Source: a virus (Duplodnaviria; Caudoviricetes). From it: DNA of 63,967 nucleotides. Position numbers and translations under genes: made by a program. Shown piece by piece: positions 128-18,404 of the stretch (position 1 is the stretch's first letter; every line of letters begins with the position of its first letter). Where the stretch lies: the IMG/VR virus record IMGVR_UViG_3300031718_000009, positions 1 to 63,967 of that record. One strand, given 5' to 3'. The notes under the pieces are model-generated. The model worked only from the letters and a program-made list of their open reading frames with translations, made no database searches and was not told where the DNA came from.

Positions 128-974
128 ATGGCACCGAGCTCGCGTCAAACCCGGGTTTGTGCGGATCAGTTTGGCCAGGAATTACGCCAGGCGCCGGAGA
201 AGCTGCGGCCGCTGGCTGTTGGACAGGCGCGGCAGCGGCGGGCGCCTGCGCCATTTGTTGAGGCGCCTGAGGCATTCCACCGCCTGGCGTTTGCCCCCCA
301 TTCAGCGCGCTTCCTAGACCACCTAGCGCCGAACCGATGATCCCCTTTTGCTGGATTGGCTGCGGGAGCAAGCCCATGATGCCTTGGCGCCCAAACAGAA
401 GGTTGCCGAGGAGACCGCCACCGCCTTGCGCGAGCTGCGTTTGCCCGACAGGAGGCACGAGCGGCGGCAGCGTTTGAGGCGTTGGCGTGCTTCCGGGGCC
501 GGAATAGGGTGTCGTAGTCTCAGGACCGCCCGGCGCGTTGCCTGGCGTAGCGCCGCCGCCTGGCGCGAAGAAGACATGACCGCCGATCTCGGCTAGCGGC
601 GTGCCTTGCGCCCACTTCGGTGTCGATCGCCCTAGCTGCGCTTGTGCGGCCGGCGCATAAAAATGGGTTGCACCATTGGTTTGATCGGCAACCACGCCGG
701 TGAACACCCCTTGCGCGAGCGCTTGCGCCTGCTTGTACGAGGCGTCGCTTGGGCTCGCGGTCAGCGCCGGGCCGGTTCCTCCAGGCGGATGCCACGCCTC
801 GAACTGGTAGGGAGCGTGGACGATCTCCGATGGCGTTTTGCCGTAGCCGCCAGCTTGGAGGCGATTGCGGATGACGCTCGCGACTGCGGCCATCGAGGCA
901 TGTGTCGCGTTCGGCCCGGCTTCGCCGAGGATCGTGCGAGTTACCGCGTCGAGGTCCGCGCCGGACAGGTCCAT
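48..974 (-). CDS. SleB/Hydrolase_2-family cell wall hydrolase with a long Gly/Pro/Gln-rich C-terminal tail
   Basis: Motifs RTILGEA, AVASVIRNR, PYQFEAW, TNGATHFYAP and IGGHVF. The ATG at 974 overlaps the upstream TGA. Confidence 0.88.
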   Translation of the reverse strand: MDLSGADLDAVTRTILGEAGPNATHASMAAVASVIRNRLQAGGYGKTPSEIVHAPYQFEAWHPPGGTGPALTASPSDASYKQAQALAQGVFTGVVADQTNGATHFYAPAAQAQLGRSTPKWAQGTPLAEIGGHVFFAPGGGATPGNAPGGPETTTPYSGPGSTPTPQTLPPLVPPVGQTQLAQGGGGLLGNLLFGRQGIMGLLPQPIQQKGIIGSALGGLGSALNGGQTPGGGMPQAPQQMAQAPAAAAPVQQPAAAASPAPGVIPGQTDPHKPGFDASSVPYLGKTADAGGSGLLAQLFGGGAPANA

Positions 975-1111
975 CAATCACCCAAAAAGCAAAGCGCTAA
1001 TCCGACGACGCCGCCAACAAAAATACAAGCCTCCACGATCACGCATACGAGGATACAAACATCACCTACGACGAGCATTACGGCGTCGAGGTCAGTGCCC
1101 GGAAGGTCCAT
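974..1111 (-). CDS. 45-aa small membrane protein (MDLPGTDLDAVMLVVGDVCILVCVIVEACIFVGGVVGLALCFLGD)
   Basis: Translated by hand; below the ORF-track cutoff; TGATG coupling to the hydrolase gene. Confidence 0.6.
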   Translation of the reverse strand: MDLPGTDLDAVMLVVGDVCILVCVIVEACIFVGGVVGLALCFLGD

Positions 1112-1157
1112 TATACCCTCTGTAACAATTCGTGATCGCACCTTCTGGGTGCATTCA

Positions 1158-1185
1158 TTGACAATGCGCCGCTTAGGAGTATATT
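1158..1185 (+). promoter_or_regulatory. Sigma70-type promoter of a counter-oriented four-gene cassette
   Basis: TTGACA-N16-TATATT, followed by a GGAG RBS and the ATG at 1227. Confidence 0.65.
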
Positions 1186-1226
1186 CAGGTTATGCACTAA
1201 TCCAGTGCTTATATGGAGTACGGAAA

Positions 1227-1445
1227 ATGACCAAATTCCCCAAGCACATCTCTAACGGCATGAGCGCCAATGCCGGGGGCCCGGTACTGGCCCTCACTGC
1301 CAATAACCAAATCGTATCATACGGATACGATGACCCAATCAATCCTGATGCGGCGTTGAGGCGCGCCGCCAGAGACGGAATGACCGCGATTGCCACGTAT
1401 GCCAACACAGGCACGTTGCACCGCGTAGTGGAGATAAACCAATGA
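1227..1445 (+). CDS. Hypothetical protein, 72 aa
   Basis: RBS GGAG; ATGA-coupled to the next gene. Confidence 0.6.
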   Translation: MTKFPKHISNGMSANAGGPVLALTANNQIVSYGYDDPINPDAALRRAARDGMTAIATYANTGTLHRVVEINQ

Positions 1446-1765
1446 AAGCAATCATCAACGGACTACGCTACGACACCGAGAAGGCGGTCCTGATCGGCGA
1501 GGCGAGCACGCCGTTCACTCGCTTGAGTGGAGACTTTACCCATTGGGAAGCTGGCCTTTACCGCACGCCTCGATCCGGTCGCTATTTCCTGGCCGGTCGC
1601 GGAGGCCCAATGACGCGATTTGCCCATAGCGCAGGACAAAATGAAACGCGCGGCGGCTCTCGCATCTTTCCTATGGACGACGCCGAGGCGCTTGCATGGG
1701 CCGAGGAATATCTGACAACCGACGAAATTGAACGCGGCTTTGCCGCAAAACTAGAGGACGCATGA
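1442..1765 (+). CDS. Phage hypothetical protein (IINGLRYDTEKA...LYRTPRSGRYFL type)
   Basis: ORF track; ATGA coupling at both ends. Confidence 0.75.
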   Translation: MKAIINGLRYDTEKAVLIGEASTPFTRLSGDFTHWEAGLYRTPRSGRYFLAGRGGPMTRFAHSAGQNETRGGSRIFPMDDAEALAWAEEYLTTDEIERGFAAKLEDA

Positions 1766-2010
1766 AAATGCTCACACGCACACTTTTAATCGCGGCCGCG
1801 CTTGTAGCCTCGGCTACATTCGCCACGGCCCAAACCTACCAGAGCCTCGGCAACGGCGTGGTCATCGGCAGCGACGGATCGATGGCCCAGCCGCTCGGCA
1901 ACGGTGTAATCATCACGCAAACACCGCCGTTCCCGCAGTATGGTCAACCGCTACAGCCACAGCGCCAGGTCTACTGCCAGCCGCTGGGGTACACGGTCGT
2001 CTGCAACTGA
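1762..2010 (+). CDS. Small secreted protein with an internal Q-x-LGNG repeat
   Basis: Signal peptide MKMLTRTLLIAAALVASATFATA; C-terminal Cys pair. Confidence 0.7.
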   Translation: MKMLTRTLLIAAALVASATFATAQTYQSLGNGVVIGSDGSMAQPLGNGVIITQTPPFPQYGQPLQPQRQVYCQPLGYTVVCN

Positions 2011-2022
2011 AGGACGAATGAA

Positions 2023-2238
2023 ATGTTCACGCGTGAAATGACAACGTACCAAACTCGAATCCAAGAGATCGAACCTGCGGTTAACCCGCGCCACATCGAA
2101 GGATTGATGCGCGTCCATTACGGGACACTCGATCATCTTAACCACGATGATTTCAAACACGAGGTTCACGTTTGCGCGGTAATTGCGTTGCAAGACTATG
2201 ATACCGCAGAAGAAATAGCAACGAGCTATGGGCTCTGA
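2023..2238 (+). CDS. Hypothetical protein
   Basis: ORF track; RBS AAGGA; converges on terS. Confidence 0.65.
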   Translation: MFTREMTTYQTRIQEIEPAVNPRHIEGLMRVHYGTLDHLNHDDFKHEVHVCAVIALQDYDTAEEIATSYGL

Positions 2239-2240
2239 CC

Positions 2241-2588
2241 CTAATTGGGCGCGGACGGTTCACGCCGCTCGCGCTCAAATTCCCTCGAATATTCGATCTG
2301 CGGCGGACCCAGCCGCGATCTCAACAGCTCCAACGTCTCCGCAATCTTCGAGGCCGGCGATTGCAAACCTCCATCTTTTGCAGCTTGCAGTTGCAGCGGC
2401 AAAATGCGGGCGAGGAGAGCGCAGAACACTTGCGGATTTTGGCGCGCCACCTTCACGAGATAATCCTCGCCGCCAACCTTTTCGAAGGCGTTCATGATCG
2501 CCTCGCGCAGGCTCACGGTGATTTTATTTGGTTTCCCACTTGGGCGCCCCTTGGCCAGCTTATGACCAGGTTGGAACCTTCCCATCAT
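2241..2588 (-). CDS. terS: Terminase small subunit (putative)
   Basis: GRFQPG..KGRPSGKPNKIT.SLREAI..AF...GG..YL...NPQVF..LL..ILP pattern; first gene of the late operon. Confidence 0.7.
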   Translation of the reverse strand: MMGRFQPGHKLAKGRPSGKPNKITVSLREAIMNAFEKVGGEDYLVKVARQNPQVFCALLARILPLQLQAAKDGGLQSPASKIAETLELLRSRLGPPQIEYSREFERERREPSAPN

Positions 2589-2617
2589 ATCCCATTTATT
2601 TTATGTGAAATAACGTG

Positions 2618-2760
2618 TCCGCCTCGGCTCATGGCTCAGTTCGGGTACAACGGATGCGCATGATTGAGCCGGCTGGCGCGTATGAACCGAGGCGAAACTT
2701 GACGAGAGTGTGCCCTAGCGGGCGCGAGGATGCGGGGACCATTTTCCACCTCTTGTCAAG
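2618..2760 (-). promoter_or_regulatory. Late-operon leader/promoter region with nested inverted repeats
   Basis: Stems 2618-2632/2682-2696 and 2633-2640/2663-2670; inverted repeat 2698-2708/2750-2760 containing TTGAC in each arm. Confidence 0.5.
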
Positions 2761-2811
2761 CGGTTGGCACAACTATTTTGTGGGCAACTCAAAATAACCG
2801 CCATATTCGCG

Positions 2812-3327
2812 CTAATAGAGGCCGATCTGTGTGGCACGGAGGGGCTGTGGATGGCACACTTCCCAGACAAGAACCCCGCGCGCATTGAGGGACGCCGCCA
2901 CGATGCAGAGCGCCTTTTCGCGTTTGCGGAAAAACGTCCGCGGAGCCCAAAGCTTATCCGCACAAAGCCGCTTAATCGATCGACCTTGCGAGACACGTAG
3001 CGCCCAAAGACCTGTGACAAGCGCCATACCAGGGTCCTCTCGCCGAAGTTCGCTTAACCACTCGAACGCAGCTTCCATGTGCTTAATCTCCTCTCCGCTC
3101 GGCTGCGGCCGGCGCCCACGGTTTGCCGCCTCCTCGCGCATCTTGCGTTCGATCGGATCAATCCCAAGTTGATCACCCCACTCCGTCATCGTCGTTGGCC
3201 AATTTCCGCCAGGCGCGCGAGGACCGGCAGCCACAGGCATCATGGCCAGCGTGACGAACGCTTGAACGATTGCCTGCCCTACGCGCTCCGCATCCCACAT
3301 TTGCACAGCCTCAATGGTTGTCGCCAT
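2812..3327 (-). CDS. DUF6362-like putative late-gene regulator (Q-analogous position)
   Basis: W....V...AF.TL..MP, P..EI..ME....WL and a C-terminal HTH-like segment; directly upstream of the late leader. Confidence 0.6.
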   Translation of the reverse strand: MATTIEAVQMWDAERVGQAIVQAFVTLAMMPVAAGPRAPGGNWPTTMTEWGDQLGIDPIERKMREEAANRGRRPQPSGEEIKHMEAAFEWLSELRREDPGMALVTGLWALRVSQGRSIKRLCADKLWAPRTFFRKREKALCIVAASLNARGVLVWEVCHPQPLRATQIGLY

Positions 3328-3460
3328 CGTCCGATAAACCCAATTTTCTAAAAACCTCCCTAAGCGCATACCTCCATCCGCATTGAAGACCGGTCTCAAA
3401 CCCTGTCCAAAAACAAATGCAGCAAAAAATATACAGATCGATCCAGAACATCATCAGCAT
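3311..3460 (-). CDS. Small hydrophobic protein
   Basis: TGATG-coupled start; hydrophobic, Cys-rich N-terminus. Confidence 0.45.
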   Translation of the reverse strand: MLMMFWIDLYIFCCICFWTGFETGLQCGWRYALREVFRKLGLSDDGDNH

Positions 3461-3783
3461 CACCCATTGAGCCTGATGTCTCCAGGGTTTGCCACAAGCA
3501 GACCGGCCCGCTGTGCCTGGTACGCCGACTCTGCCTCTCGGCTCGGTGCGTTGGTCCATTGGATCAATCGCGTGTTGAGCATGATCGAGGTGCCGCTAAG
3601 GCACGGCGAGTCGCGCAAAAAGTTTCTAAACAGAATTGTTTTTGGCGGCGCGATTTGCAGAAAACACGGGTATTCGAATTTGATAAAAAACCCAAGTGGC
3701 GTGTCGGTGGTATCCCACGTCGTCTCGCCGATCAGGTCGATACCGCCAACCATCGTGAGGATGACCAGTTGTTTGGGTTTCAT
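3460..3783 (-). CDS. Hypothetical protein
   Basis: ORF track; coupled to both neighbours. Confidence 0.65.
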   Translation of the reverse strand: MKPKQLVILTMVGGIDLIGETTWDTTDTPLGFFIKFEYPCFLQIAPPKTILFRNFLRDSPCLSGTSIMLNTRLIQWTNAPSREAESAYQAQRAGLLVANPGDIRLNG

Positions 3784-4019
3784 TCCGCAATCTCCGGTAT
3801 GCCTGCACCGAGCTTCGCGCGCAGTTCTGGGGATAACGGCGGGAGGGGTTTGTCCCGGTACTTGGCGGCGAGAGCGGCTTCAATGTCGCGATCCGCTTCG
3901 GCATAAAGTTCGTCTCGATTTTTGTGCAACACCTTCTCGAAATCTCTACCGAGAGGTTGCATGCTGTTTGCCAATTCGCGGATTAGCGTGCTTACTGGTG
4001 CTCGATCGTTGGTTGTCAT
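3780..4019 (-). CDS. Hypothetical protein
   Basis: ORF track; ATGA-coupled. Confidence 0.65.
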   Translation of the reverse strand: MTTNDRAPVSTLIRELANSMQPLGRDFEKVLHKNRDELYAEADRDIEAALAAKYRDKPLPPLSPELRAKLGAGIPEIAE

Positions 4020-4594
4020 GTGCAGTCTTTCGCTTCAAGTTTTTTCCAGCAACTTGGCGGTTGCCCCTCGTATGCTGGCGCAAACTCGCCAGCCTTGAAC
4101 AACCGTCCTCCTATCCGCTTTGTCGGTACCCAACGGCTCTCTTGCCTTAATTCACCATTAAAAGACTCTTTTTTAATATTGTAATTGTAATTGTAGAGCA
4201 GAGGGTGTAGCACATCGGTAGCATTGCTATGTATCCTCCCCTTATTTTTCAATGCTTTAGCAGTCCCGCCAAGGTGCCCCGCGAGCTTCTTTTTTTGATG
4301 CCTCGCGAGCGCATTTAAAATCTCGTCGCGAAGCCTCTTTTGCGTTATCTCTTGGCCGTCCGATCCTTCGACTATCGTCATGAAATCCATGATCTTTTTC
4401 TCAATTTTCATCCATTGAGGCATAGGTGCGCCGGCTATCAATGCTAACTTTTTGCTATTTTTTGCTAGCTTTCCGCCATTTCGCCACATCGCCATCAAAA
4501 TGAGGAGGTATGCGCCATGCTCGAACGTCGTCAGGTGGCGTGTGTCGCCCAAATAATCGTCCGTCCAAAGGATCATTCCAGGGATGTCGGTCAT
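4016..4594 (-). CDS. DUF1376/YdaU-family replication initiator (lambda O analogue)
   Basis: N-terminal motif WTDDYLGDTRHLTTFEHGAYLLILMAMW and QKRL; internal AT-rich stretch at about 4165-4230. Confidence 0.82.
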   Translation of the reverse strand: MTDIPGMILWTDDYLGDTRHLTTFEHGAYLLILMAMWRNGGKLAKNSKKLALIAGAPMPQWMKIEKKIMDFMTIVEGSDGQEITQKRLRDEILNALARHQKKKLAGHLGGTAKALKNKGRIHSNATDVLHPLLYNYNYNIKKESFNGELRQESRWVPTKRIGGRLFKAGEFAPAYEGQPPSCWKKLEAKDCT

Positions 4595-4814
4595 TCAACT
4601 AGGCATCCTCCAGCACGCGCTTCCGCGCCGGGCGCCGCCAGAATTGCACCGCGACGTGCTTGATCTCTCTGGTGCCAAATTGGCCAAGCTGATCGGAAAC
4701 TGCCAACCACTCGTCGTCCCAAACAAACGCCGTAGATAGCCGTTGTTCCATGCACAGCCGATCAACCGTGAGGCTGGCCGTACATCAGCGTATCTGTGAT
4801 TTTTGGATCAGCGC

Positions 4815-5819
4815 TCATTCGGCAGCCTCGGCGACTTCGTTGCCCCACGCATCCCACCCCGGCCGCGGCGAACCACGACGGAAAAGCTCGATCTTTGGAA
4901 GCGTTGGAAAATACTCGTCGATCATGTCTAGGAAGCACTCAGGCTTCGCGGAGTGCTTACCAACCGGCGCTTCGATTAACGAAGGCCATTGCGTACCCAT
5001 CGCAGGCGCCGGAATATTTCCATGGACGCCAATTAGCAAAAGCTCATGCTTGTTGCGGTTCCAATATCCGGTCCCAATTTTGTCCTTTGCCCAGACAAAA
5101 TGAGAGCGGTAATCGAACCCCCAATCCGCCATTAATTGAAGCGCTTGAGGAAGCATCGGAACGGTTGACCAAAGGAACAAGACACAATCTTCCGCCGCGA
5201 TCGGAATAAGCCCACTATCAGGAAAAAGGAGCGCTGGAAGCGCGATCGTCGGATAGTGATTGTCAGCCGCGCGGTCCATACCTGTTTCGCGTGACCGTGG
5301 CTCAAAACGCCACGGTGGATCACCGTAAATCAAACCATATTTTTTATCAGGAAGAGCCGTTTGCTTGGCGCCTAGCTCGGCTTCTCGCGCAACCCTCGCG
5401 GCCTTCTTTTCCTCGGTGCGCTCGACAGCGGTTGCCTCCACAGATTTCACGGCATGATGCTTGGCGTGAGCGCACCGCGCCTCAAAACTAACATCGTCCA
5501 AGGCCGCCAATTTTTGCCATCGCGATGACTGCATAGCGGAAACGCCGAGGTCAGAAAGAGTAACCTTATGTGACCCTTTTTCTGGCCTGTTAATTGGGCG
5601 CTCGCCTTTCTCACGCATCTCGGTAAGAAGTTGCCCAGCCTTACGCTCGGCGCGTAAGCGTATTTCAGTCGCCCATTCGATGAGCTGGCCATCCTTGGCC
5701 TGCCGAGCATATTCCTGCATTGCCATGGCTTTGTCGCGGATCGATTTAACCTCATCGACGCGATTAGCTTCGGCCAAGGCATTGCGCGCAGCATCGTATC
5801 GAGTAAGTTGCATGCTCAT
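4815..5819 (-). CDS. MT-A70-family N6-adenine methyltransferase
   Basis: IYGDPPW, VLFLW, WGF.Y, VWAK, GTGYW.RNKHELLL, HSAKP and KIELF.R motifs. Confidence 0.92.
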   Translation of the reverse strand: MSMQLTRYDAARNALAEANRVDEVKSIRDKAMAMQEYARQAKDGQLIEWATEIRLRAERKAGQLLTEMREKGERPINRPEKGSHKVTLSDLGVSAMQSSRWQKLAALDDVSFEARCAHAKHHAVKSVEATAVERTEEKKAARVAREAELGAKQTALPDKKYGLIYGDPPWRFEPRSRETGMDRAADNHYPTIALPALLFPDSGLIPIAAEDCVLFLWSTVPMLPQALQLMADWGFDYRSHFVWAKDKIGTGYWNRNKHELLLIGVHGNIPAPAMGTQWPSLIEAPVGKHSAKPECFLDMIDEYFPTLPKIELFRRGSPRPGWDAWGNEVAEAAE

Positions 5820-6208
5820 CTCAAAATGTCCTTGAGCCTGATCAGCGCGACGGTGAACCTGCCGCCGTCGCCAGCCCTATCTCGCCATTGTCCGGCGCGG
5901 ATCGCTTCGCGCGTAAGTTCCTTTAATCGCCAGACAGGAAACATCAAATAGACGAGCGTGCTGTCATCGCGTCGCAGCTCGTGAACCCATACGTCCGCTT
6001 CAGTCGTTGCGATCCCGGACGGCTCGCCGTTCTGCCGGTATTCGATGCAAATATTACCCGTCTGTTCCCATTGCCATGTCTCGCTTTTGAGCTCGATGCG
6101 CCCATTGCAAAGGATGCCCGCAAGCTCATGTTCGCGCAAACGCGCTTGGCTCAATTGAAGATCAAACTTGTTGTCACGATTGAATTCGATTGGTCCGCAC
6201 CCGCTCAT
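5816..6208 (-). CDS. Phage protein, possible PD-(D/E)XK-type nuclease fold
   Basis: IELK...TGNICIEY...PSGI.TTEAD.W motif. Confidence 0.55.
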
Positions 6209-7422
6209 GACAAAAGCATCCTGCTTAAAACATCGATTTCCTCGGCAAGCGCCTTGTCCTCGGCGACAAGCTTTTCGATCTTTCGCACGCCATGCAATAC
6301 CGTTGTGTGATCTCTACCGGCGAACCGCCGCGCAATGTCCGGCAGTGATCTCAGCGTCAACTGCTTTGAGAGATACATAGCGATCTGGCGCGGGCGCACC
6401 ACGCACGCGGTTCGCCGCGCGGATAAGATGTCGTCGCGGGTTACGTTGAAATGGCTCGCGACCATTTTCTGTATGGCCTCGATCCTGACCTTTTTCCGCT
6501 CTGGCTCGCACACAAGATCACAAATGGCGGACTCGGCGAGCTCCATTGTCACATGGCCTGGAGATTGGTAGTGATGATGCTCAGAATTTTTCACCGACGA
6601 ACACGCTACTAGACGGTTTACCGCTCCCACGAGATCGCGCCCGTTTGTCTGAATAACGCTCGCGATGTAGGCGATAACCTCGGCTGGAACCTCAAAAGTT
6701 TGATGCACCAGTTTGACGGCGGCTATGCGCGCTTCGAGAATTTTGACCCGTAAATCCGCATCTAGCGGACCGATTTCGATGCAGAGGCCGCCGGCAAAGC
6801 GCGAGCGGGTTCTTTCTTCGAGACTTTCGAGATCGCGCGGCGGGCAATCGGCCGCGACTATGATCTGCTTTTGAATGTCGTCGAAAAAGGCATTAAGCGC
6901 ATAACAAAACTCCTGTTGAATCGACTTGCCCTGAAGAAATTGAATGTCGTCGATCACGAGGACATCAACAGCACGTAGTCTTTCCTTGAACGCGCATGCC
7001 GTCTGTGCCTTGAGGGCTGACACGAACCCGTACATGAACCGATCCGCGGTCAAATAGAGGACTTGCCGGTTTGCGGCTGCGGCCTGCGCTACAGCTTGGA
7101 GAAGATGCGTTTTCCCCAACCCAACCGAGGCATGTAGATACAACGGATTGTAAATAGGCTTGATCGCACACGCCGCTCTGTTCGCCTCGACGTATGCCAC
7201 GCGGTTCGAGTCGCCGACATGGAAGCTCGTAAACGTCATGCGGGGATCGAGCGAAGAGCCGGTAATAGGCTCGACTGTCTTCTGTGGCGGTTTGACTGTC
7301 TTCTGTGGCGGCTGGATGGATTTCTTGGGCGGCGGCGGAAACCATGCCTCATGAATGCGATCATGCTCCGCGGCGATATGATCGAGCAGCGATGAACCCG
7401 TGTTGTGGCGAAGATCGGTCAT
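6205..7422 (-). CDS. dnaA: DnaA homologue with AAA+ domain III and DNA-binding domain IV; domain I absent
   Basis: [26 protein letters not shown] (Walker A), VLVIDDIQF (Walker B), RSRF, NGRDL, RQIAMYL and RDHTTVLH. Confidence 0.95.
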
Positions 7423-8347: not shown

Positions 8348-8354
8348 GGCTCAC

Positions 8355-8621: not shown

Positions 8622-8657
8622 CGCCCGTATCCTAGCGAAGTCGTTCAGCGGTTATCA

Positions 8658-10466: not shown

Positions 10467-10560
10467 TCTCTCCATTCGCGGTGAAGCGGGAAGGCGGCAA
10501 GCGGCGCAGAAGCAGCGCCGGCGGTCAGGACCCTCGCGAAGCAGGAAATGGAGAGCAAAA

Positions 10561-11248: not shown

Positions 11249-11331
11249 TCACCGCCGTCGCCATATTTATCTGCTTGCTGGTCGCGTCCGCGTGCGTGTT
11301 TCTCAGCTACTTTAACGGGGGCTCACCATGA
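11245..11331 (+). CDS. 28-aa membrane peptide (MITAVAIFICLLVASACVFLSYFNGGSP)
   Basis: Translated by hand; coupled at both ends. Confidence 0.5.
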   Translation: MITAVAIFICLLVASACVFLSYFNGGSP

Positions 11332-11699
11332 GCGAGTTTCACGAAGGCCAAGAGGTCGAGGTGCGCGTAAGCGAAGATGGCCAGATTTATCGCGAATGGC
11401 ACAAGGCGAAGATCATTCCTCATGTCTATGATTCCGTAACCGCAAAAACGCCAGGCCTATATCGCGTCCAATTCCCCGATGGGACTAGCTGCGTCTTCGA
11501 CACGGCGCACATCCAGAAGCGCACGCGCAGCTACGATCCAATTTGCGACGCGGTTGCAGTCCACTTTATGGATAGACCCACCCCCGACTGGCTTGTCGAA
11601 GAGCTTGCGCAGCACATTCAAGACACGATTGAGGATTGGCTTACGTCTGAAAGCGAACGGATCGAGGCGGCGATCGCCAAGGCGAAGGAAACGGCATGA
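11328..11699 (+). CDS. Tudor/SH3-like domain protein (paralogue A)
   Basis: F.EGQEVEV...W.KAKI...Y.VQFPDGT..VFD..HI. Confidence 0.65.
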   Translation: MSEFHEGQEVEVRVSEDGQIYREWHKAKIIPHVYDSVTAKTPGLYRVQFPDGTSCVFDTAHIQKRTRSYDPICDAVAVHFMDRPTPDWLVEELAQHIQDTIEDWLTSESERIEAAIAKAKETA

Positions 11700-12592
11700 C
11701 CGGCCCTGGCCTCTATCCCGACATGCCGGCGGCAACCTACCATGCCGATCCTGCCGACGAGCCGAGCCTTTCAAGCTCGATCGCAAAAATTCTGATCAAT
11801 GAGACCCCAAAGCACGCGCGCGAAGCCCATCCGCGGCTCAATCCGAATTTCACGGAAAAAACAGCAACGAAAGCAATGGATCTCGGCTCTGTCGCGCACG
11901 AAATTCTACTCGGCAAGGGCACCGGGTTCGAAGTGTGCCCATACGATGATTACAAAACGAAGGTCGCCCGCGAGTGGCGCGACGAAATCACATTGAGCGG
12001 CAAAATCCCGATAAAAGAGGATGACCTTGATGCGGCCGAAGCAATGGCCTCTGCCGTTTGTGCAAGGCTTGCTGAAATCCAAGGGATCGAACGTGCGCTC
12101 ATAGAAGGCGCGGCCGAAACGTCAATCATCTGGCGCGACGCGCTAGGCCCAATGTGCCGCGCGCGGCCCGACTGGCTCGATTTAGGTGGCCCCGCCATCT
12201 ACGATCTCAAGACGACCGGAACTGGCCTCGACGACCGTTCCTTGAACGCAAAAATCGCCTCCCCGTATACCGCGTACGACATGCGCGCAGCATTTTATCT
12301 TCGCGGGATCGAACGGCTTGTGCCGGCAGCCGCCGGGCGGATCGTCTACCGCTGGATTTTCGTCGAAAGTGCGCCGCCTTTCGAAGCCCGTGTTGTCGAA
12401 ATGGACGAAATCACGCGCGGCTTCGGCGACAGGAAGGCCGCATACGCAATAGCTAAGTGGCAACGATGCCTCACCGAAAATCGTTGGCCAGGCTATCCGC
12501 GCAAGATCGAGAAGCCGAGTTATCCGCCTTGGGCCGAGACGGCGTGGCTCGATCGCGAATTCGAGGAGATGGTCAGTGACACAGTTTCGTGA
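11696..12592 (+). CDS. RecE/exonuclease VIII-like PD-(D/E)XK nuclease (DUF3799 type)
   Basis: YHAD...LSSS, GSVAH, CRARPDW, DLKTT and Y..RAAFY motifs. Confidence 0.88.
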   Translation: MTGPGLYPDMPAATYHADPADEPSLSSSIAKILINETPKHAREAHPRLNPNFTEKTATKAMDLGSVAHEILLGKGTGFEVCPYDDYKTKVAREWRDEITLSGKIPIKEDDLDAAEAMASAVCARLAEIQGIERALIEGAAETSIIWRDALGPMCRARPDWLDLGGPAIYDLKTTGTGLDDRSLNAKIASPYTAYDMRAAFYLRGIERLVPAAAGRIVYRWIFVESAPPFEARVVEMDEITRGFGDRKAAYAIAKWQRCLTENRWPGYPRKIEKPSYPPWAETAWLDREFEEMVSDTVS

Positions 12593-12821
12593 TGGACAGG
12601 AAGTCGAGGTCGAAGGCATTTGGTTTAAGCGTGGCGAAACAAGCCGCGAGATCGCGTGGCGCAAGGCGAAGATCGTTCCCACGCGCCAAGGAAGCCCCGC
12701 GCAACCACCGGATTTTTACGGCGTCCAATTCCCCGACGGCACGCGCGCCGTGTTCGACGCAGAGCATATCAGGCCAATCGGCGACTTTGAACTTGGTATT
12801 GTTAGGAGTGATTTCCGGTGA
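12576..12821 (+). CDS. Tudor/SH3-like domain protein (paralogue B)
   Basis: F.DGQEVEV...W.KAKI...YGVQFPDGT..VFD..HI. Confidence 0.65.
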   Translation: MTQFRDGQEVEVEGIWFKRGETSREIAWRKAKIVPTRQGSPAQPPDFYGVQFPDGTRAVFDAEHIRPIGDFELGIVRSDFR

Positions 12822-13546
12822 ATGACGACATTCTACGAACCATCGAACCAAAATCAGATCAATTAAACGCTGACAGCTTACTCGGCCGCACGCTCACGAT
12901 CAAAGTCACGAAAGTGATGGTCAGTGATGGGGGCAAGGGCGATCAGCCGGTAACAGTCTCATTCGAGGCTGACGATGGCAAGCCGTATAAGCCGTGCAAG
13001 TCCATGCGCCGCGTCTTGGTCTTCGTTTGGGGGCCGGACGTAAGCGCATGGGCCGGACGATCGATGACGCTCTATCGTGACGAGCATGTGATGTTCGCAG
13101 GGGCGGAAATCGGCGGCATCCGCATTTCGCATATGTCCGGGATAAAGACGCCATGCACGCTGTCGCTAACCTCTTCGCGCAGCAATCGAAAACCATACAC
13201 CGTTCAGCCGCTTACGCAGCGGCGCAACCTGCTTGCGGCACCAGAGGAGCCAGTTGATAGCCTTTCTCTCGTCCTGGATGGCCATCGCATCGCCGAACAA
13301 GGAATGGCCGAGCTTGGCGCTTTCTGGCAGCGGTTGACGCCGGATCAAAAGCGACAGGCGGGCGGTGCCGCGCAGCTCGAAAGCTGGAAGCGCACGGCGG
13401 TTGAGGCTGACCACGCCGCGCTAGTCGATCCCCCCGCCGGTCGCGCCGCGGGGGTGAAGGATACGGGGGCGGTGGAGCCCCCCGATGCTGCCCCCGCATC
13501 CGAGATCAAAGCTGCGGCACAATGGGGAGGAGAGTGGCTGATATGA
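12818..13546 (+). CDS. Conserved phage recombination-module protein (putative ssDNA-binding/annealing)
   Basis: PKSDQLNAD, KPYKPCKSMRRVL..VWG and GGIRISHMS motifs; next to the exonuclease. Confidence 0.55.
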   Translation: MNDDILRTIEPKSDQLNADSLLGRTLTIKVTKVMVSDGGKGDQPVTVSFEADDGKPYKPCKSMRRVLVFVWGPDVSAWAGRSMTLYRDEHVMFAGAEIGGIRISHMSGIKTPCTLSLTSSRSNRKPYTVQPLTQRRNLLAAPEEPVDSLSLVLDGHRIAEQGMAELGAFWQRLTPDQKRQAGGAAQLESWKRTAVEADHAALVDPPAGRAAGVKDTGAVEPPDAAPASEIKAAAQWGGEWLI

Positions 13547-13731
13547 TGACCTTTACCGCTGAGGAAAAATTCAAATGCGCCGCGCGCGAGGCGAAAATGC
13601 GCCTTCGCGTATATCCGCGATTGGTTGAAAAAGGCCAACTGACCGAAGAAACGTCCAAACGCGAGATCGCGTTAATGGCCGCGATCGTCGAAGACTACCG
13701 CGCGCTTGCCGCAGAAGAGAGGCTGATATGA
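13543..13731 (+). CDS. Small phage protein (EK..CA.RE..MR..VYPR type)
   Basis: ATGA-coupled; flanked by a 16-bp direct repeat. Confidence 0.7.
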   Translation: MMTFTAEEKFKCAAREAKMRLRVYPRLVEKGQLTEETSKREIALMAAIVEDYRALAAEERLI

Positions 13732-13982
13732 AACAGACCAAAGTGTTTGAAGCCGACGACGGAACGCAGTTTCCAACGGCGGCAGAATGCAAAGTGTATG
13801 AGGAATACGGATATCTTTATGATCTTCTCAGCGCGCTTGACTCCGCGCAAATCCGTGATGCTCTCGACCGTACCGATGTCAAGCTCGCCGACGCCTTTGA
13901 GCGCGCCGGCGGCATCATCGCGGCGAAGCGGCGCGAGAGCGGCGAATTGCGACGCAGGAAGAAATCGGGACAAAAGCCATGA
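13728..13982 (+). CDS. Hypothetical protein
   Basis: FEADDGTQF...EC..YE motif; coupled to neighbours. Confidence 0.7.
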   Translation: MKQTKVFEADDGTQFPTAAECKVYEEYGYLYDLLSALDSAQIRDALDRTDVKLADAFERAGGIIAAKRRESGELRRRKKSGQKP

Positions 13983-14092
13983 GCTATGATGCCCTTGTTT
14001 TCTGGCTCGGGATATTCATGGGGTTCACAGTCGGCCGTGCCTTCACGCCAATATGCAAGGCTATAAGCGATTTCTGGAAAGGTGCAACATGA
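13979..14092 (+). CDS. 37-aa membrane peptide (MSYDALVFWLGIFMGFTVGRAF...)
   Basis: Translated by hand; ATGA-coupled at both ends. Confidence 0.5.
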   Translation: MSYDALVFWLGIFMGFTVGRAFTPICKAISDFWKGAT

Positions 14093-14352
14093 CGCTCGCT
14101 CTTCCGCTGCGGCTTGATGGTAGTTTCCATATTCTTGATGCAAATGGCGCACCAATCGCAATGCTTTATTTCACGCCACATGTGCCTGTACGCCGCGAAC
14201 ACGGCGAGGAAATCGTCGCGGCCATCAACTCGCACGATCGGCTGCTCGCGGCGGCGAAGGCAGGCTTGGAAGCGTTGCAGGCGAGCGACTTAGACCCACA
14301 ATCATACCAATGGGTGAAAGATGCCATCGCAGCGGCCGAGGCCGCGCAATGA
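14089..14352 (+). CDS. Hypothetical protein
   Basis: IVAAINSHD.LL motif typical of small early phage proteins. Confidence 0.65.
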   Translation: MTLALPLRLDGSFHILDANGAPIAMLYFTPHVPVRREHGEEIVAAINSHDRLLAAAKAGLEALQASDLDPQSYQWVKDAIAAAEAAQ

Positions 14353-14639
14353 CCCGCGACGAACAGCGCGCGAAGTTCGCCAAAACAATGGCCGATGCAC
14401 TCCACGACATGACAGACGACGATCCGTTTTCGCCAGAACAGGAATTAAGGATTGCATATTTTATCCTCGACTCCTTGCACGGCATCGCGTTCGTCAATCC
14501 GATCGAAACGACGGAGGAGATGTGGAAGGCTGCGGATGATGAATGGATAGCGGCCGAAGGCTATATCGATTTTTCTGAGTTTTGGCGTGCCATGGCCGCC
14601 GCTGGCGACCTCACCAACCCGCAGGAGACGAAGCCGTGA
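14349..14639 (+). CDS. Hypothetical protein
   Basis: P.E.TEEM..A motif; coupled to neighbours. Confidence 0.65.
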   Translation: MTRDEQRAKFAKTMADALHDMTDDDPFSPEQELRIAYFILDSLHGIAFVNPIETTEEMWKAADDEWIAAEGYIDFSEFWRAMAAAGDLTNPQETKP

Positions 14640-14968
14640 ACCGCGACGAACGCGACTGGACAACCCCAACCCTTACCGAAGTCCGCTCGCTTCGCCCGGC
14701 CGATCTCGCCAAGCGCTGGCAGTGCTCTGACCGCCACGTCCGCAACCTCGTGCGCGCAATGATCTTGCCAAGTTTCCGCGTCGGGGGCAAGCTGATACGA
14801 ATTCCTCTGGACGCCGTCGAGGCTTACGAGGGGCTAGCGCAAAGATGCAACCAAAGTTTCGGGCAGTCCTCTATCGCGGGCACTACTACGCCGCCTGGCG
14901 GGAAAACGGAACCATCCGCCGCAAAGCGCTTCGTACCCGCGATCGTGAGTGCGCCGAGCAAACGCTGA
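14636..14968 (+). CDS. xis: Excisionase (HTH_17/MerR-like)
   Basis: LRPADLAKRWQCSDRHVRNL...LPSFRVGGKLIRIP; GTG start with GGAG RBS; overlaps the integrase gene. Confidence 0.8.
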   Translation: MNRDERDWTTPTLTEVRSLRPADLAKRWQCSDRHVRNLVRAMILPSFRVGGKLIRIPLDAVEAYEGLAQRCNQSFGQSSIAGTTTPPGGKTEPSAAKRFVPAIVSAPSKR

Positions 14969-15882
14969 AATCTTTCGCCGAGCAGTACGAGATCGCCAAC
15001 CGGCCGCAGGTCATTACCGTGGAGTTTGTCTGGAATGGATACCGTGAAACGCTCGCTGGTCGTCCTGCCGGCAAAACAATGGAATTTGAGGCGCGAGCGC
15101 TGCTTCCATTCCTTGGCTCAATTCCTGCCGGCTCTATCACAGAGAGAGATTGCCGGGATTATCATGAGCGCAGAAAAGCTTCAGGACGCAAAGACGGAAC
15201 AATCTGGACAGAGCTCGGGCGACTGCGATCGGCGCTGAAATGGGCGGAAAGAAAAAACCTGATCGTCAAGGCCCCGGCGATTTATCGGCCGCCAGCGTCC
15301 CCGCCGCGGGATTTGCGCTTGACGCGGGAACAAGCTTCCAAGTTCATGTCCTCATGCGTGATGCCGCACGTCAGACTCTTCGTCATTCTCGCCATGACGA
15401 CCGGCGCGAGAGCTGGAGCCCTCCTCGGGTTGACGTGGGATCGCATCGACTTCGATGGGAAATTGATCGATTTAGCCGATCCGGCGCGCCCGAGGACTAA
15501 GAAAGGCCGGCCAATGGTGCCAATGAACCGCACGGCCGCCGCCGCCCTCCAGGAAGCCCGCGCGGGGGCGCTGACGCCCTTCGTGATCGAATGGGATGGG
15601 AAGCCGGTGCAGAGTGTGAAGAAGGCCCTAGCGGCCGCCGGGAAGCGCTGCGGGCTGCCTTGGGTGAGCGCGCATGTGTTCCGGCATTCCGCGGCGAGCT
15701 GGATGGCCGAGGCGGGGGTGAGCATGGACAGGATCGCGGCGTTTCTCGGCCATACCGACAGCCGGATTACCTCCCGCGTCTATGCTAAGTTTTCGCCCGA
15801 TTATCTGCGCGATGCGGCCGAGGCGCTGGAGATCGATCTATTGAAGGACGGCATTCGTGCTCCGCACAGAAACATTCGATGA
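14845..15882 (+). CDS. int: Tyrosine recombinase/integrase
   Basis: TGAR, HVFRH, LGH and VY catalytic motifs. Confidence 0.95.
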   Translation: MQPKFRAVLYRGHYYAAWRENGTIRRKALRTRDRECAEQTLKSFAEQYEIANRPQVITVEFVWNGYRETLAGRPAGKTMEFEARALLPFLGSIPAGSITERDCRDYHERRKASGRKDGTIWTELGRLRSALKWAERKNLIVKAPAIYRPPASPPRDLRLTREQASKFMSSCVMPHVRLFVILAMTTGARAGALLGLTWDRIDFDGKLIDLADPARPRTKKGRPMVPMNRTAAAALQEARAGALTPFVIEWDGKPVQSVKKALAAAGKRCGLPWVSAHVFRHSAASWMAEAGVSMDRIAAFLGHTDSRITSRVYAKFSPDYLRDAAEALEIDLLKDGIRAPHRNIR

Positions 15883-16162
15883 CGAAGAGTGGCAACTCGT
15901 CCCAAAAAAACCGACGCCTGCTATGCTTGGGAAAGCACTATCCGTAACCGCGTCTTGGCTTAACCTATCAGGAAGCGGCGTAACTATGAATTACAAGAAA
16001 ATGAGCATGAGATACAGAGCTATGTTGTATGCTGCTCCGGTGCCTTATGATCAAGATAAGAATTGGGATAAAGACCTAGAACTGGCATTAGCTGAACGTC
16101 AAGTAATCGAGGCGCTGGAGATCGACACAGTGGCCGAAGTGAAAGGAAAGGTGACGGGATGA
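15857..16162 (+). CDS. Lower-GC inserted gene (WQLVPKKPT..M motif)
   Basis: Lies between the two copies of an 18-bp direct repeat. Confidence 0.6.
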   Translation: MLRTETFDDEEWQLVPKKPTPAMLGKALSVTASWLNLSGSGVTMNYKKMSMRYRAMLYAAPVPYDQDKNWDKDLELALAERQVIEALEIDTVAEVKGKVTG

Positions 16163-16458
16163 GCGGCGAGTGGCAACCGATCGAGACGGCGCCGAGAGAT
16201 GGAACTTGGGTCATCGTCTATCGGCCGAATGCCAACGAATACATTAGACACATAGGTCAGGACCACTGGCGATTGGACCTCGAAGGCGGCTGTTGGGGAG
16301 GATCGCCTGCATTATGCCAGCCTACTCATTGGATGCCTTTCCCGGAGCCGCCTGCGGAGTCGCCCCGTGTTCATCGGGCACGCTCGAAAGAACCTTCCGT
16401 GCCCGAAACGGCTACAAATGCCGGCCCAAAAAAGGCAAAGGACGCCAAAAGCCCTTAG
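16159..16458 (+). CDS. DUF551-family protein
   Basis: WQPIETAPRDGT...PTHWMP.PEPP. Confidence 0.8.
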   Translation: MSGEWQPIETAPRDGTWVIVYRPNANEYIRHIGQDHWRLDLEGGCWGGSPALCQPTHWMPFPEPPAESPRVHRARSKEPSVPETATNAGPKKAKDAKSP

Positions 16459-16478
16459 ATTCCAGTGTGGCCGCTATT

Positions 16479-16523
16479 TTCACACGGGAGGGGTCGTTGG
16501 TTCGAAACCAACCGTGCCCACCA
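16479..16523 (+). other. attP core: 3' half of tRNA-Val(CAC)
   Basis: TT-CAC-AC anticodon loop, T-arm GTTGG-TTCGAAA-CCAAC and acceptor strand CGTGCCC-A-CCA. The 5' half is absent; the site is downstream of the integrase. Confidence 0.88.
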
Positions 16524-16593
16524 ATATTTACAGATATTTAGCCTTTGGGCTAAATTTACGAAGGGTGTTCAAGTGAACGTGAAGCGAGGCAAT

Positions 16594-16821
16594 ATGGCCA
16601 TGATACGGACTTTCCTTCTATGTTTCGTTTCGTTTTGGTGCGGCGTCCTTGCCACCGGGTATCGACAGCATTGGGTTTGGCCTACGGCGGCAGACAAGAT
16701 GAACCAGACCGCCGGGCCACTCGCCGGCTTTTGCTTGCGCGGCTATCCTATTCCGGACCCGGAAGCTCGCGCCGCGAACGAAGCGGCTTGCGCCAATCTG
16801 AAGGGCGCCCTGGCGAAATGA
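16594..16821 (+). CDS. Small membrane/exported protein
   Basis: Hydrophobic N-terminus; Cys pair; located after attP. Confidence 0.55.
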   Translation: MAMIRTFLLCFVSFWCGVLATGYRQHWVWPTAADKMNQTAGPLAGFCLRGYPIPDPEARAANEAACANLKGALAK

Positions 16822-17051
16822 ACCTCTTACAGACCGTCACCTGCCCTCAATGCGGACACAAGAGTTACCTCGACCATGATTATATCGTTGAGCTTGGAGA
16901 CGTTCTTGAATGCGGAAACCACAATTGTTCAATCATGTTCCAGCCGGACGACACAAACACGGAAACGTTTTCATGGGATGGCGTCAAGCTTGTTCACGTT
17001 TCAACCCCTGATAATCGCGGGCCAACAGACCGCGACCTGAGAAACGCATGA
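16818..17051 (+). CDS. Zinc-ribbon protein
   Basis: CPQCG...ECGNHNC. Confidence 0.65.
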   Translation: MNLLQTVTCPQCGHKSYLDHDYIVELGDVLECGNHNCSIMFQPDDTNTETFSWDGVKLVHVSTPDNRGPTDRDLRNA

Positions 17052-17170
17052 CCCACATGAACGGCGCGCACGCGGATATCGTGTTCGCGATCCTATTTGC
17101 GGGCTTTTTCACTTTTTTAGGCCTGCTTGTGATCGCCTTGGCAATTTCCAAATCAGGGAAGGAGAAATGA
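17048..17170 (+). CDS. 40-aa membrane peptide
   Basis: Translated by hand: ...IVFAILFAGFFTFLGLLVIALAISKSGKEK. Confidence 0.55.
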   Translation: MTHMNGAHADIVFAILFAGFFTFLGLLVIALAISKSGKEK

Positions 17171-17174
17171 CACT

Positions 17175-17264
17175 ATGTTGAACGTAATTGCATTCGCCTG
17201 GAGCTACATTGTTCCATTGCTTTTGATCGCCTGGGCGGTTTCCAAATTATGGAAGGGGAAGTGA
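17175..17264 (+). CDS. 29-aa membrane peptide whose C-terminus duplicates the previous gene
   Basis: MLNVIAFAWSYIVPLLLIAWAVSKLWKGK; 47-bp imperfect repeat. Confidence 0.5.
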   Translation: MLNVIAFAWSYIVPLLLIAWAVSKLWKGK

Positions 17265-17581
17265 TGGGACGTGACGCCATGAACGACGCCCTGGACAAGC
17301 GCACGCACCAGGCCGGAAGCTTACCGCCCAAAGACCATCGTGGCAATGACCCTGGGGGCGATAGCTTCCAGTTCCGCCCACACATCGACATAAGAGAGCT
17401 CAATAGCCGCGTCGAAGCTCTCTACGAGCGCATTGCCGCGCTCGAGGCGGCGCTCGCCAAGCAGCGCGCTGTGAATGAGGCGCTAGCCAAGGCCATTCCT
17501 GTTTTTGTCGGCATCGGAACGGTCACACTAATTAACGACATTGACAGTCTTGAAGCAGCCCTTCGCGAAGCGCTGAGATGA
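17264..17581 (+). CDS. Coiled-coil hypothetical protein
   Basis: ORF track; TGATG-coupled. Confidence 0.6.
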   Translation: MGRDAMNDALDKRTHQAGSLPPKDHRGNDPGGDSFQFRPHIDIRELNSRVEALYERIAALEAALAKQRAVNEALAKAIPVFVGIGTVTLINDIDSLEAALREALR

Positions 17582-17589
17582 ACACCTGA

Positions 17590-17982
17590 TTATCCGCGAG
17601 CCTTTTCCAATTTCTTGTCTAGGTCGTTTATCATTTTCTGCATCGCCTCGATCTTGTCTTCCATTGCCGTCCGCTGACTGTTGACGATCTTATGGGTTTC
17701 GTCCGTCACAGCCATATTTTCATCGGCCGACTTTTGGAGCCCAGATAGTCGCGCGTCGGTCGTCTTTGCTGCCTCGACTAATGCCCGCGCAGCATTGGCC
17801 GCGTCACGCGCCGCGTTCTCCGTAGCGATTTGCGCCTTTGCGGCGGCCTCGGATGCACGGTGCGCCGCTTCCTGCGCCTTCCTATTCGCACGCTGATTTA
17901 AAAAGGAGGAGCCGACCGTCGCTATGATGTTTCCGAATAGGCCGATGACGGCCGCGATGATGAGATAGCCGTTTTCAGTCAT
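17590..17982 (-). CDS. Membrane-anchored coiled-coil protein (lysis-module accessory)
   Basis: N-terminal TM helix followed by a coiled coil; end of the late operon. Confidence 0.6.
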   Translation of the reverse strand: MTENGYLIIAAVIGLFGNIIATVGSSFLNQRANRKAQEAAHRASEAAAKAQIATENAARDAANAARALVEAAKTTDARLSGLQKSADENMAVTDETHKIVNSQRTAMEDKIEAMQKMINDLDKKLEKARG

Positions 17983-18170
17983 TGCTTAAGTCTCCTTAAG
18001 CGCCCAGCATTGCGCATGATGTCGGTCGGTTTGCGCATTCTACGAAAGCCGAAAATGTGGCGGAACGCGATACGCCTCGCCCACCGCGATCGCCACATGC
18101 CGGCTCGCGCGCACCGCCATAAAAACCTTATGCCGGTGCAACGCGAACCTCTAAGCACGTCGCCCATTGC

Positions 18171-18404
18171 TTACCTTGAGTGCATACCGAGCGTTGGGAA
18201 CGATGCCCCGGATATTCCAGAGGCAACGACCAACTGCCATATGATCCACAGCACGATGCAGACCAGAACTAGGACCATCAGGACGTACACGATCGTCCTG
18301 AACGGCTCGGCCATCGGGATCAGCGGAAGGAGCGTTTGGATAGCCCACCACACAACTCCGATGATGATGACGATGAAAATTATGCCGATTAGCGTCCCGA
18401 TCAT
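18171..18404 (-). CDS. Two-TM small membrane protein (Thivi_2564-like; holin candidate)
   Basis: LIGIIFIVIIIGVVWWAI...IPMAEPFRTIV pattern. Confidence 0.7.
   Translation of the reverse strand: MIGTLIGIIFIVIIIGVVWWAIQTLLPLIPMAEPFRTIVYVLMVLVLVCIVLWIIWQLVVASGISGASFPTLGMHSR

Follow-up and report, generated by a model that had tools for sequence, protein, structure and literature searches.

How do phages add single genes to an existing operon, and which traces do such events leave behind? The mechanism by which single accessory genes are acquired was called 'mysterious' (PMC4378225), and homologous versus illegitimate recombination as its basis is debated in the field (PMC3945230). The question is raised by the early region of a tailed soil phage (Caudoviricetes), IMG/VR record IMGVR_UViG_3300031718_000009, which was analysed over its whole length of 63,967 nucleotides (nt), called the window in the following. 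In the first 18.4 kb of the window, eight small genes are each bracketed by a pair of short direct repeats, and an earlier note on this DNA had suggested that these repeats belong to a system for the gain and loss of gene cassettes. We number the repeat pairs from 1 to 8 and call the small genes bracketed by them X1-X8. The reading presented here, to which we give a probability of about two in three, is that the repeats are scars which recombination left at or close to gene boundaries when single genes were inserted.

All eight repeat pairs exist as they had been described, and every coordinate and match count was recovered (28/34, 16/29 ungapped, 21/22, 15/16, 14/15, 18/18, 39/47 and 9/9 for pairs 1-8). 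When local direct repeats (distance 40-700, ungapped, +1/-2 scoring) were sought across the window, 60 matches reached a score of at least 12, 24 of which lie outside an internally repetitive gene at 38.7-39.8 kb, and the top four of those 24 are pair 7 (17124/17218; score 23), pair 3 (7413/7742; score 19), pair 6 (15819/16108; score 18) and pair 1 (941/1078; score 16). Codon-preserving shuffles (n=16), each giving 3-12 matches with a score of at least 12, reach a maximum score of 15; the excess over such shuffles that the earlier note had proposed to look for is present for these four pairs, which exceed all 16 shuffles, and absent for the other four. Pairs 4 (13531/13716; score 13) and 5 (14350/14637; score 12) are at noise level by score alone and are notable solely through the in-register placement of both copies at adjacent junctions. 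In a start-anchored in-register test, a score of at least 12 is reached by 4/77 adjacent same-strand gene pairs versus 1/4294 non-adjacent pairs (Fisher 4e-7), and a stop-anchored test with free offset and gaps, which is free of start-choice bias, gives 4/74 adjacent versus 10/4288 non-adjacent pairs (Fisher 7e-5). The two remaining pairs are not above chance: pair 2 (1749/2005) has a gapped score of 10, reached by 2.6% of null pairs, and pair 8 (17980/18165) has a score of 9, reached by 0.5% of null pairs, with about 0.4 expected among 77. Four of the eight pairs are hence solid, two are probable and two are chance. The repeats are specific for their loci, the best cross score between units being 6, and represent neither an insertion sequence (IS) family nor an attC array, as the earlier note had held; with lengths of 15-47 nt and identities of 82-100% they show no fixed-length duplication as known for insertion sequences or transposons.

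Read in frame, each solid pair is a copy of the terminal codons of a neighbouring gene. In pair 1 on the minus strand, 941-974 comprises the first 11 codons (MDLSGADLDAV) of gene 48-974, which encodes a cell-wall hydrolase and has its true 5' end here, and the second copy at 1078-1111 (28/34) comprises the first 11 codons (MDLPGTDLDAV) of the open reading frame (ORF) 974-1111, which encodes a hydrophobic protein of 45 residues and the stop codon of which overlaps the hydrolase start. A second soil metagenome from a separate study, run X2 (distinct from the gene X2), carries the same phage at low depth; eight listed pieces covering parts of window 1-20000 have 0 differences, including the contig piece 360-1145 that contains both copies of pair 1, and the few variant positions, in the DnaA-like gene and near 2355, lie outside the eight listed pieces. 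Pair 3, also on the minus strand, comprises at 7413-7434 the junction of X3 (ORF 7419-7751) and the DnaA-like gene 6205-7422 (GERA*, ATGA overlap, MTD) and at 7742-7763 (21/22) the junction of the RuvC-like gene 7748-8347 (GEPA*) and X3 (MTD...). The 307 bases between these copies (7435-7741) have a GC content of 0.47 versus 0.57 in the flanks, and X3 encodes a Cys-rich protein of 110 residues that belongs to no family and is absent from the closest relative of the phage, the viral contig G001. In pair 6 on the plus strand, 15819-15836 (codons EALEID) falls within the 3' end of the tyrosine integrase gene 14845-15882, where it is the final stretch that integrase alleles still have in common, and 16108-16125 (18/18), together with a tail to 16162, forms the C-terminus of X6 (ORF 15857-16162), which is ATGA-coupled to gene 16159-16458. 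Pair 7, likewise on the plus strand, comprises at 17124-17170 the last 15 codons of the 40-residue membrane ORF 17048-17170 with Shine-Dalgarno sequence (SD) and ATGA, and at 17218-17264 (39/47) the last 15 codons of the 29-residue ORF 17175-17264 with SD and GTGA, the start of gene 17261-17581.

The two probable pairs, both on the plus strand, are shorter. The unit of pair 4 consists of the last five or six codons and ATGA; it is found at 13528-13546 at the end of gene 12818-13546 (..EWLI*) and at 13713-13731 (17/19) at the end of the 62-residue gene 13543-13731, X4 (..ERLI*), in both cases with an ATGA overlap. The unit of pair 5 is (A/G)TGA plus four codons and is found at 14350-14364 at the start of the 96-residue gene 14349-14639 (MTRDE) and at 14637-14651 (14/15), where the excisionase-like gene 14636-14968 begins with GTG (vNRDE; phrog_66); the start MTRDE is native to gene 14349-14639 because the G001 homologue begins with MTPAED. 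The chance pairs are the degenerate pair 2 (1749-1778 and 2005-2033, plus strand) around gene 1762-2010, and pair 8 (17980-17988 and 18165-18173, minus strand; 9/9, TAAGCAATG) around ORF 17979-18167, a real Arg-rich gene that is kept in G001, where the repeat is not conserved. The observation of the earlier note that small ORFs are bracketed by copies of gene ends or junctions is borne out, as is its statement that coupling signals are kept, ATGA or GTGA start/stop overlaps being present at most of these junctions. The inserts X1, X3, X6 and X7 have a GC content of 0.43-0.50 versus 0.55-0.61 in their flanks. In a scan of five of the bracketed ORFs, X2-X6, against PHROG families alone, X6 matches families of unknown function only (phrog_5913), the other four have no match and no transposase was found among the five.

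At pair 6 the origin of the second copy can be traced. This copy sits 37 nt before the stop codon of X6 and is followed by the tail TVAEVKGKVTG*. A search for integrase homologues returned 676 proteins with E<=1e-20 and up to 77% identity, and in the best 120 of these 676, which were fetched, the C-termini read ...EALEI followed by variable tails. Of 100 homologue tails compared, 9 score at least 20 with TVAEVKGKVTG*, versus a mean of 0.9 and a maximum of 5 for shuffled tails; the best match is the tail of P0004, DTVHEFKGKITG, and those of P0014 and P0002 are also similar. The integrase's own present tail is matched by only 3 of the 100 homologue tails (shuffled maximum 4), which is not significant. 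Because its tail matches the tails of integrase homologues, the segment 16108-16162, i.e., the last 18 codons of X6, is an old integrase 3' end that now closes X6. The 271 nt between the two copies, with a GC content of 0.45 versus 0.60 in the flanks, hold the new integrase tail and the body of the phrog_5913-matching ORF.

The same boundary is involved in other phages. In integrase relatives from metagenome loci, the segment GCCGAGGCGCTGGAGAT is shared, and beyond it each tail and each downstream gene differs. A 14-nt core is present in one copy in 7 of 14 such loci, absent from 5 and present in extra copies in 2, L198 and L197, in which extra copies of GAGGCNCTGGAGAT are followed by integrase-type tails. 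L198 (1317-1580) shows the order integrase gene, 61-residue ORF and relic ETMREIKVAK* (versus ETMHEIKVAK* in L203), then an ATGA-coupled gene, and L197 (1140-2070) the order integrase gene, HNH-like gene, relic, 95-residue ORF and relic. The genes inserted at this boundary are mutually unrelated, the left edges of the relics lie 0, 3, 3 and 15 nt upstream of the motif, and the insert of L198 is out of frame with its relic; the search by motif detects only relics that contain it. As judged from these arrangements, the boundary looks like the site of repeated, independent additive events with imprecise joins beside the last conserved stretch of the integrase gene. A site-specific recombination core at this position was considered and dropped in view of the varying relic edges and of the bias of motif-only detection. 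The suggestion that the identity of the copies reflects the age of the event is not supported, since integrase alleles of different phages already share a boundary of 14-17 nt and two copies can therefore stem from two diverged parents.

The closest relative, G001, is a viral contig of 62,352 bp that is colinear with the window at 50-86% amino acid identity and, in blocks, 64-91% nucleotide identity; near-identical phage records were not found in the phage collection searched. DNA homology between the window and G001 is interrupted precisely at the hydrolase start (974), at the stop of the RuvC-like gene (7748) and also at position 3780. At the site of pair 1, G001 has one hydrolase start, no 45-residue ORF and none of the block 974-1827. 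At the site of pair 3, G001 has the end of the RuvC-like gene, GGAGCGCGGGCATGA, in a single copy, followed by a different gene of 98 residues that replaces X3 and the DnaA-like gene, and the junction before the next shared gene (TGTCATGAGCG) is identical in the window and G001 despite the different upstream genes. Both window copies of pair 3 share a derived base relative to G001, and the duplication therefore arose in the lineage of the window. A search for empty sites in G001 thus finds a single copy and no small gene for pairs 1 and 3, with a different gene at the pair 3 site, and does not find this for pair 4.

How general such scars are was assessed by a survey of 98 other viral loci (1.32 Mb) and 80 host chromosomal loci (1.51 Mb), the latter being chromosomal dnaA loci, which were the sole return of a contig scan with the DnaA-like protein. 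Loci with at least three clustered matches (<1.5 kb between successive matches; 24 viral, 5 host) were set aside before counting. Simple local repeat loci with a score of at least 16 number 59 per 1.32 Mb in viral DNA versus 34 per 1.51 Mb in host DNA. The early region of the window (18.4 kb) holds 4 such loci versus 0.82 expected from the other viral loci, which is a mild enrichment (P about 0.01), and over the whole genome, with 2.85 expected, the number is unremarkable (P 0.32). Bracketing was defined as an ORF that begins at copy 1 and ends at copy 2 with the next ORF beginning in register. For scores of at least 19, bracketing occurs in 10/25 viral cases, versus 17/500 upon random placement and 0/8 in host DNA; for scores of 16-18, in 9/43 versus 36/860 and 0/20; for scores of 14-15, in 10/87 versus 31/1740 and 2/122; and for a score of 13, in 2/112 versus 43/2240 and 2/247. 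In host DNA, bracketing at a score of at least 16 amounts to 0/28, and random placement gives 2-4% overall. Examples include L061, with a 29/29 repeat (SD, ATG and five codons) in copies 280 nt apart, and L002 (25/25), L033, L043, L041, L025 and L001. In L175, two genes U and V are arranged as U - CGGAGATTTTGAAA - 121-residue gene - CGGAGATTTTGAAA - V, where CGGAGATTTTGAAA represents the last codons of the upstream gene, and in L179, L181 and L185 U and V are joined by a single ATGA junction; these loci give a clean comparison of a filled with an empty site. Empty sites were sought for the 31 bracketing examples in other phages, and only L175 had relatives with both neighbours among the loci compared. 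Viral relatives of the protein encoded by 12818-13546 (best 80 of 159, L001-L080) are too distant for a comparison of junctions and share almost no small neighbours. The phenomenon is phage-specific and recurrent, and it is not special to this phage. The part of the earlier note according to which the repeats mark gene gain is thus upheld by the integrase-tail relic, by the single-copy junctions of the closest relative and by the filled versus empty site in another phage group. As a separate observation, a block of about 70 nt in L052 (10288-11041; promoter-like TTGACA..., a palindromic GTGACGC box and a ribosome binding site) is repeated 684 nt apart before two genes; in contrast to the relics of coding sequence, this repeat is of the kind seen in regulatory cassettes.

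According to the scar reading, a small gene or a short block would be added between two genes, with one join lying a few codons inside the neighbour and not at its end. This off-end join would leave a short piece of the neighbour on both sides of the newcomer, consisting either of the neighbour's last codons with ribosome site and ATGA or of its start codon with the first codons. The newcomer would borrow the neighbour's start or stop, and the downstream gene would retain its own translation signals. One join may be homologous, using the conserved neighbour gene or boundary, and the other illegitimate or based on microhomology, and the same arrangement would result from a template switch in the backward direction. 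Among known processes, homology-facilitated illegitimate recombination is comparable. Recombination would remove long relics and very short relics would escape notice, so that pieces of 15-50 nt remain, and the repeats could later permit deletion of the inserted gene. Survivors probably keep the stop, SD and start of the operon, and the copies would therefore sit on junctions. The copies are real, they are relic pieces of neighbour genes, relatives have them singly and the same is found in other phages; the joining mechanism, the selection for coupling and the later deletion via the repeats are what we infer.

Several observations weigh against this reading. The joining mechanism was not seen directly, pairs 2 and 8 do not rise above chance, and the GC content of X4, X5 and X8 is the same as in their flanks. 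The start-anchored test used curated starts, and three start codons were set with the repeats already known. In G001, the pair 4 motif GGCTGAT(A/C)TGA is found at both corresponding junctions, bracketing an extra 68-residue gene together with the X4 homologue; the motif is either old or held by function and not a fresh scar. No flanking repeat is present at two clean single-gene differences between the window and G001, namely 3460-3783 and the extra 68-residue gene of G001, and local repeats with a score of at least 14 were not found in the G001 early region, so the pattern is not a constant property of the lineage. Finally, the in-register repeat 29507/34450 represents a shared N-terminal peptide and illustrates that not every junction repeat is a scar.

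Among the alternatives, the working system for cassette gain and loss survives best, and we consider it unlikely. It states that the junction repeats are recombination sites and that the exonuclease VIII-like nuclease with an annealing partner cuts small genes out as circles and places them precisely into homologous junctions. In its favour, insertions recur at one boundary in independent integrase relatives with differing inserts, and a nuclease of the exonuclease VIII family is indeed encoded, the protein of 11696-12592 matching phrog_412 exonuclease VIII and PF12684. Repeat lengths of 16-47 nt are near the usable range of phage recombinases, for which a recombineering requirement of about 40-50 nt (PMC7516269) and a tolerance of Red-like functions for diverged short sequences (PMC4378225) are described, and the mini-circles formed by the PeSL repeats of T4-type phages provide a precedent (PMC2839356). 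Against it, each repeat is unique (cross scores <=6) with identities from 82 to 100%, the varying left edges of the integrase relics argue for illegitimate joins and not for a defined site, the L198 insert is out of frame with its relic, and some gene indels (3460-3783; the 68-residue gene of G001) occur without repeats. An annealing protein was not identified in searches of 12818-13546, and the label of a single-stranded DNA protein that this gene had been given finds no assignment in Pfam, the Protein Data Bank (PDB) or by fold. Its AlphaFold model (pLDDT 83.5) gave no match at E<=0.001 in a Foldseek search against the PDB, with weak OB-fold-like matches only, and a wide VIA-align comparison reached a best Z of 5.3 that is confined to the helical tail. 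No evidence was found for a role of the RecE-like nuclease in the insertions. Deletion or circle junctions at the repeat pairs were absent from the Logan contigs of two soil metagenomes, contigs being blind to rare variants. A single weak joint in run X2 (11362->12723; one contig, 23-nt side) was discounted, being about 100 nt out of register with a paralogous repeat. There is no evidence for a dedicated cassette machinery, and likewise none for excision. The wider proposal that junction copies serve tailed phages as working sites of recombinase-driven single-gene gain and loss, a gene leaving with one copy as a circle and entering phages with the same junction, is equally doubtful; if true, it would amount to integron-like or PeSL-like cassette traffic without a dedicated site, for example at the conserved last integrase segment.

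The paralogous repeat just mentioned belongs to two genes on the plus strand, 11328-11699 (N-terminal domain) and 12576-12821, which flank the exonuclease VIII-like gene 11696-12592. Their DNA repeats lie at 11397-11479 and 12657-12736, they share the motif GQEVEV...KAKI.P...VQFPDGT..VFD..HI, and both nuclease-flanking genes differ in G001.

A second alternative, which we regard as quite improbable, does without any insertion history and holds that adjacent junctions are alike by function or convergence, through SD, spacing and ATGA, a common translational operator or a shared terminal peptide. It can draw on the pair 4 motif, which is kept at both G001 junctions, on the 22/23 repeat 29507/34450, which encodes a shared peptide that is swapped for another shared peptide in G001, and on the ends of the MT-A70 gene and the gene at 9477, which agree in 18/20 positions in register though 4.66 kb apart. 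Convergence is opposed by the scarcity of such scores (1/4294) among non-adjacent junctions, to which the same constraints apply, and by the sharp edges of the repeats, which run into unrelated coding sequence; nor does it explain the integrase-tail relic and the single-copy sites of relatives. The two distant repeats are observations in their own right. The copies 29507-29529 and 34450-34472 (minus strand) encode the N-terminal peptide NFFAEFAP shared by virion-region proteins of 2379 and 725 residues, the G001 homologues of which share another N-terminal peptide, DPWAGLANWD; since this N-terminal tag co-varies between phages, the two sequences suggest a targeting signal or gene conversion. 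The MT-A70 gene end (4815-4834) and the end of gene 9477-9734 (9477-9496), both on the minus strand, have ..EAAE* and ATGAGCGC in common, and at the same two end junctions in G001 about 12/20 positions are shared (hand count).

In-place tandem duplication followed by divergence, by which a small gene would be a decayed or frame-shifted duplicate of its neighbour or born from one, could account for the last 15 codons shared by the adjacent mini-ORFs 17048-17170 and 17175-17264, for the paralogous genes flanking the nuclease gene and for a 21-nt tandem duplication inside the DnaA-like gene, but it is very improbable given that in none of 26 testable bracketed genes from the window and other phages does similarity to the next gene (z >=5) extend past residue 12, that X1, X3 and X6 are below their flanks in GC content and that X6 matches phrog_5913, which is unrelated to integrases.

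The genome in which the scars are found is that of a temperate phage, with an integrase that matches PF00589 and is paired with the excisionase-like gene. Bases 1-127 of the window are an exact copy of 63841-63967, and this direct 127-bp repeat at both ends identifies the record as a complete phage genome, 63,840 bp long and either circular or terminally redundant, the repeat being terminal or a product of the assembly. The GC content of the whole genome is 0.57. A search of the window for transfer RNA (tRNA) genes found none, and the phage attachment site (attP), sought via tRNA and Rfam, was not located: near 16.1-17.1 kb all Rfam matches stayed below the threshold, and a comparison with the tRNA-Thr of L197 showed no resemblance. 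The early region consists of a leftward operon on the minus strand, with the cell-wall hydrolase gene 48-974 (PF07486) and genes for a DUF1376 protein, an MT-A70 methylase, the DnaA-like protein and the RuvC-like resolvase, and of a rightward operon on the plus strand, with the exonuclease VIII-like nuclease (11696-12592), the conserved protein of 12818-13546, the excisionase-like protein and the tyrosine integrase (14845-15882). In our gene model, overlaps of 1 or 4 nt are present in 21/35 same-strand neighbours of the early region versus 8/41 of the late region. The product of ORF 974-1111, which lies directly upstream of the hydrolase and is absent from G001, could be a holin-like membrane protein of small size.

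In the DnaA-like protein (gene 6205-7422, minus strand), residues 51-404 are 70% identical to chromosomal DnaA of metagenome-assembled genomes of the Hyphomicrobiales/Methylocella type, and because of this identity a host origin of the gene is suggested by the protein comparison. The first 50 residues are unrelated to chromosomal DnaA and hold the 21-nt tandem duplication (7268-7309), and the gene is absent from G001; viral relatives of the DnaA-like and X3 proteins were not found. The internally repetitive gene 38190-40124 encodes 644 residues with many diverged internal repeats (38.7-39.8 kb) of periods near 108-114 nt, and a homologous gene, likewise repetitive, is present in G001. In the G001 homologue of gene 14349-14639, CCAACCCGC(C/A)GGAGA occurs twice at a spacing of about 75 nt (reverse-complement 20740-20850), and the window has at 14590-14640 one hybrid-looking copy of this repeat and a shorter protein than G001, which resembles the outcome of a deletion or duplication between short intragenic direct repeats.

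As scars, the repeats are readable footprints of individual insertions, in which the positions of the joins, the borrowed start or stop codons and the retained translational coupling can be recognised. In our small survey they are frequent in the early regions of phages and practically lacking in host DNA. The survey suggests that scars of this kind are common and could serve as markers with which recent single-gene gains in phage genomes are found and polarised. A systematic survey of such repeats was not found in the literature searched, which included few subscription journals and no supplements.

Among known systems, the PeSLs of T4-type phages, reportedly treated as regulatory cassettes by Comeau et al. 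in 2014, are the nearest analogue that is at work. They flank small non-essential ORFs in plastic regions, where genes are shuffled and mini-circles formed when PeSLs recombine with each other (Arbiol et al. 2010, PMC2839356). Like PeSLs, the repeats described here surround small ORFs; unlike PeSLs, which form one genome-wide family of a promoter plus terminator stem-loop, they are unique, lie inside polycistronic operons and carry SD, stop and start. Promoter-like sites in 1-18400 number 6 against a mean of 9.0 in shuffles, and terminator-like sites 23 against a mean of 22.2; none of these sites is part of a repeat unit. With integron cassettes the inserts have in common that promoterless single genes are added in the same orientation beside an integrase gene; they differ in having no attC-like common site, in their direct and unique repeats, in what appears to be an ordinary phage tyrosine integrase with excisionase and in the varying edges of the relics. 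Morons are additional single genes of one phage that its relative lacks, and they are equipped with their own promoter and terminator (PMC3029335). The genes described here resemble morons as single extra genes missing from the relative, and unlike morons they are translationally coupled and borrow codons of their neighbours. Short conserved boundary or linker sequences at phage mosaic junctions were reportedly recognised by Susskind and Botstein in 1978 and by Clark et al. in 2001. In agreement with this boundary model, homology ends at gene boundaries and the integrase segment GCCGAGGCGCTGGAGAT is common to alleles with different tails and downstream genes, whereas the model explains swaps and we observe duplicated copies within one genome, which are mostly locus-specific. 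The closest parallel is gp68 of the Cluster I mycobacteriophage Island3, the last 18 residues of which copy those of gp67 over a repeat of about 50 bp and the gene of which is absent from Brujita; it was read as recombination between short sequences, by insertion or deletion, was presented as the first such case in mycobacteriophages and was tied to the Susskind-Botstein and Clark model (Pope et al. 2011, PMC3029335). Pairs 1, 3, 6 and 7 are like Island3 gp67/gp68 in that the terminal codons of a small gene copy the adjacent gene, and for pairs 1 and 3 the small gene is also missing from the closest relative; unlike Island3 with its single case, the window holds several, in some of which it is the downstream gene's start that is copied, and the one at the integrase 3' end recurs in other phages. 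Taken by itself, the window is a good multi-case example of a known phage recombination scar and not a new system.

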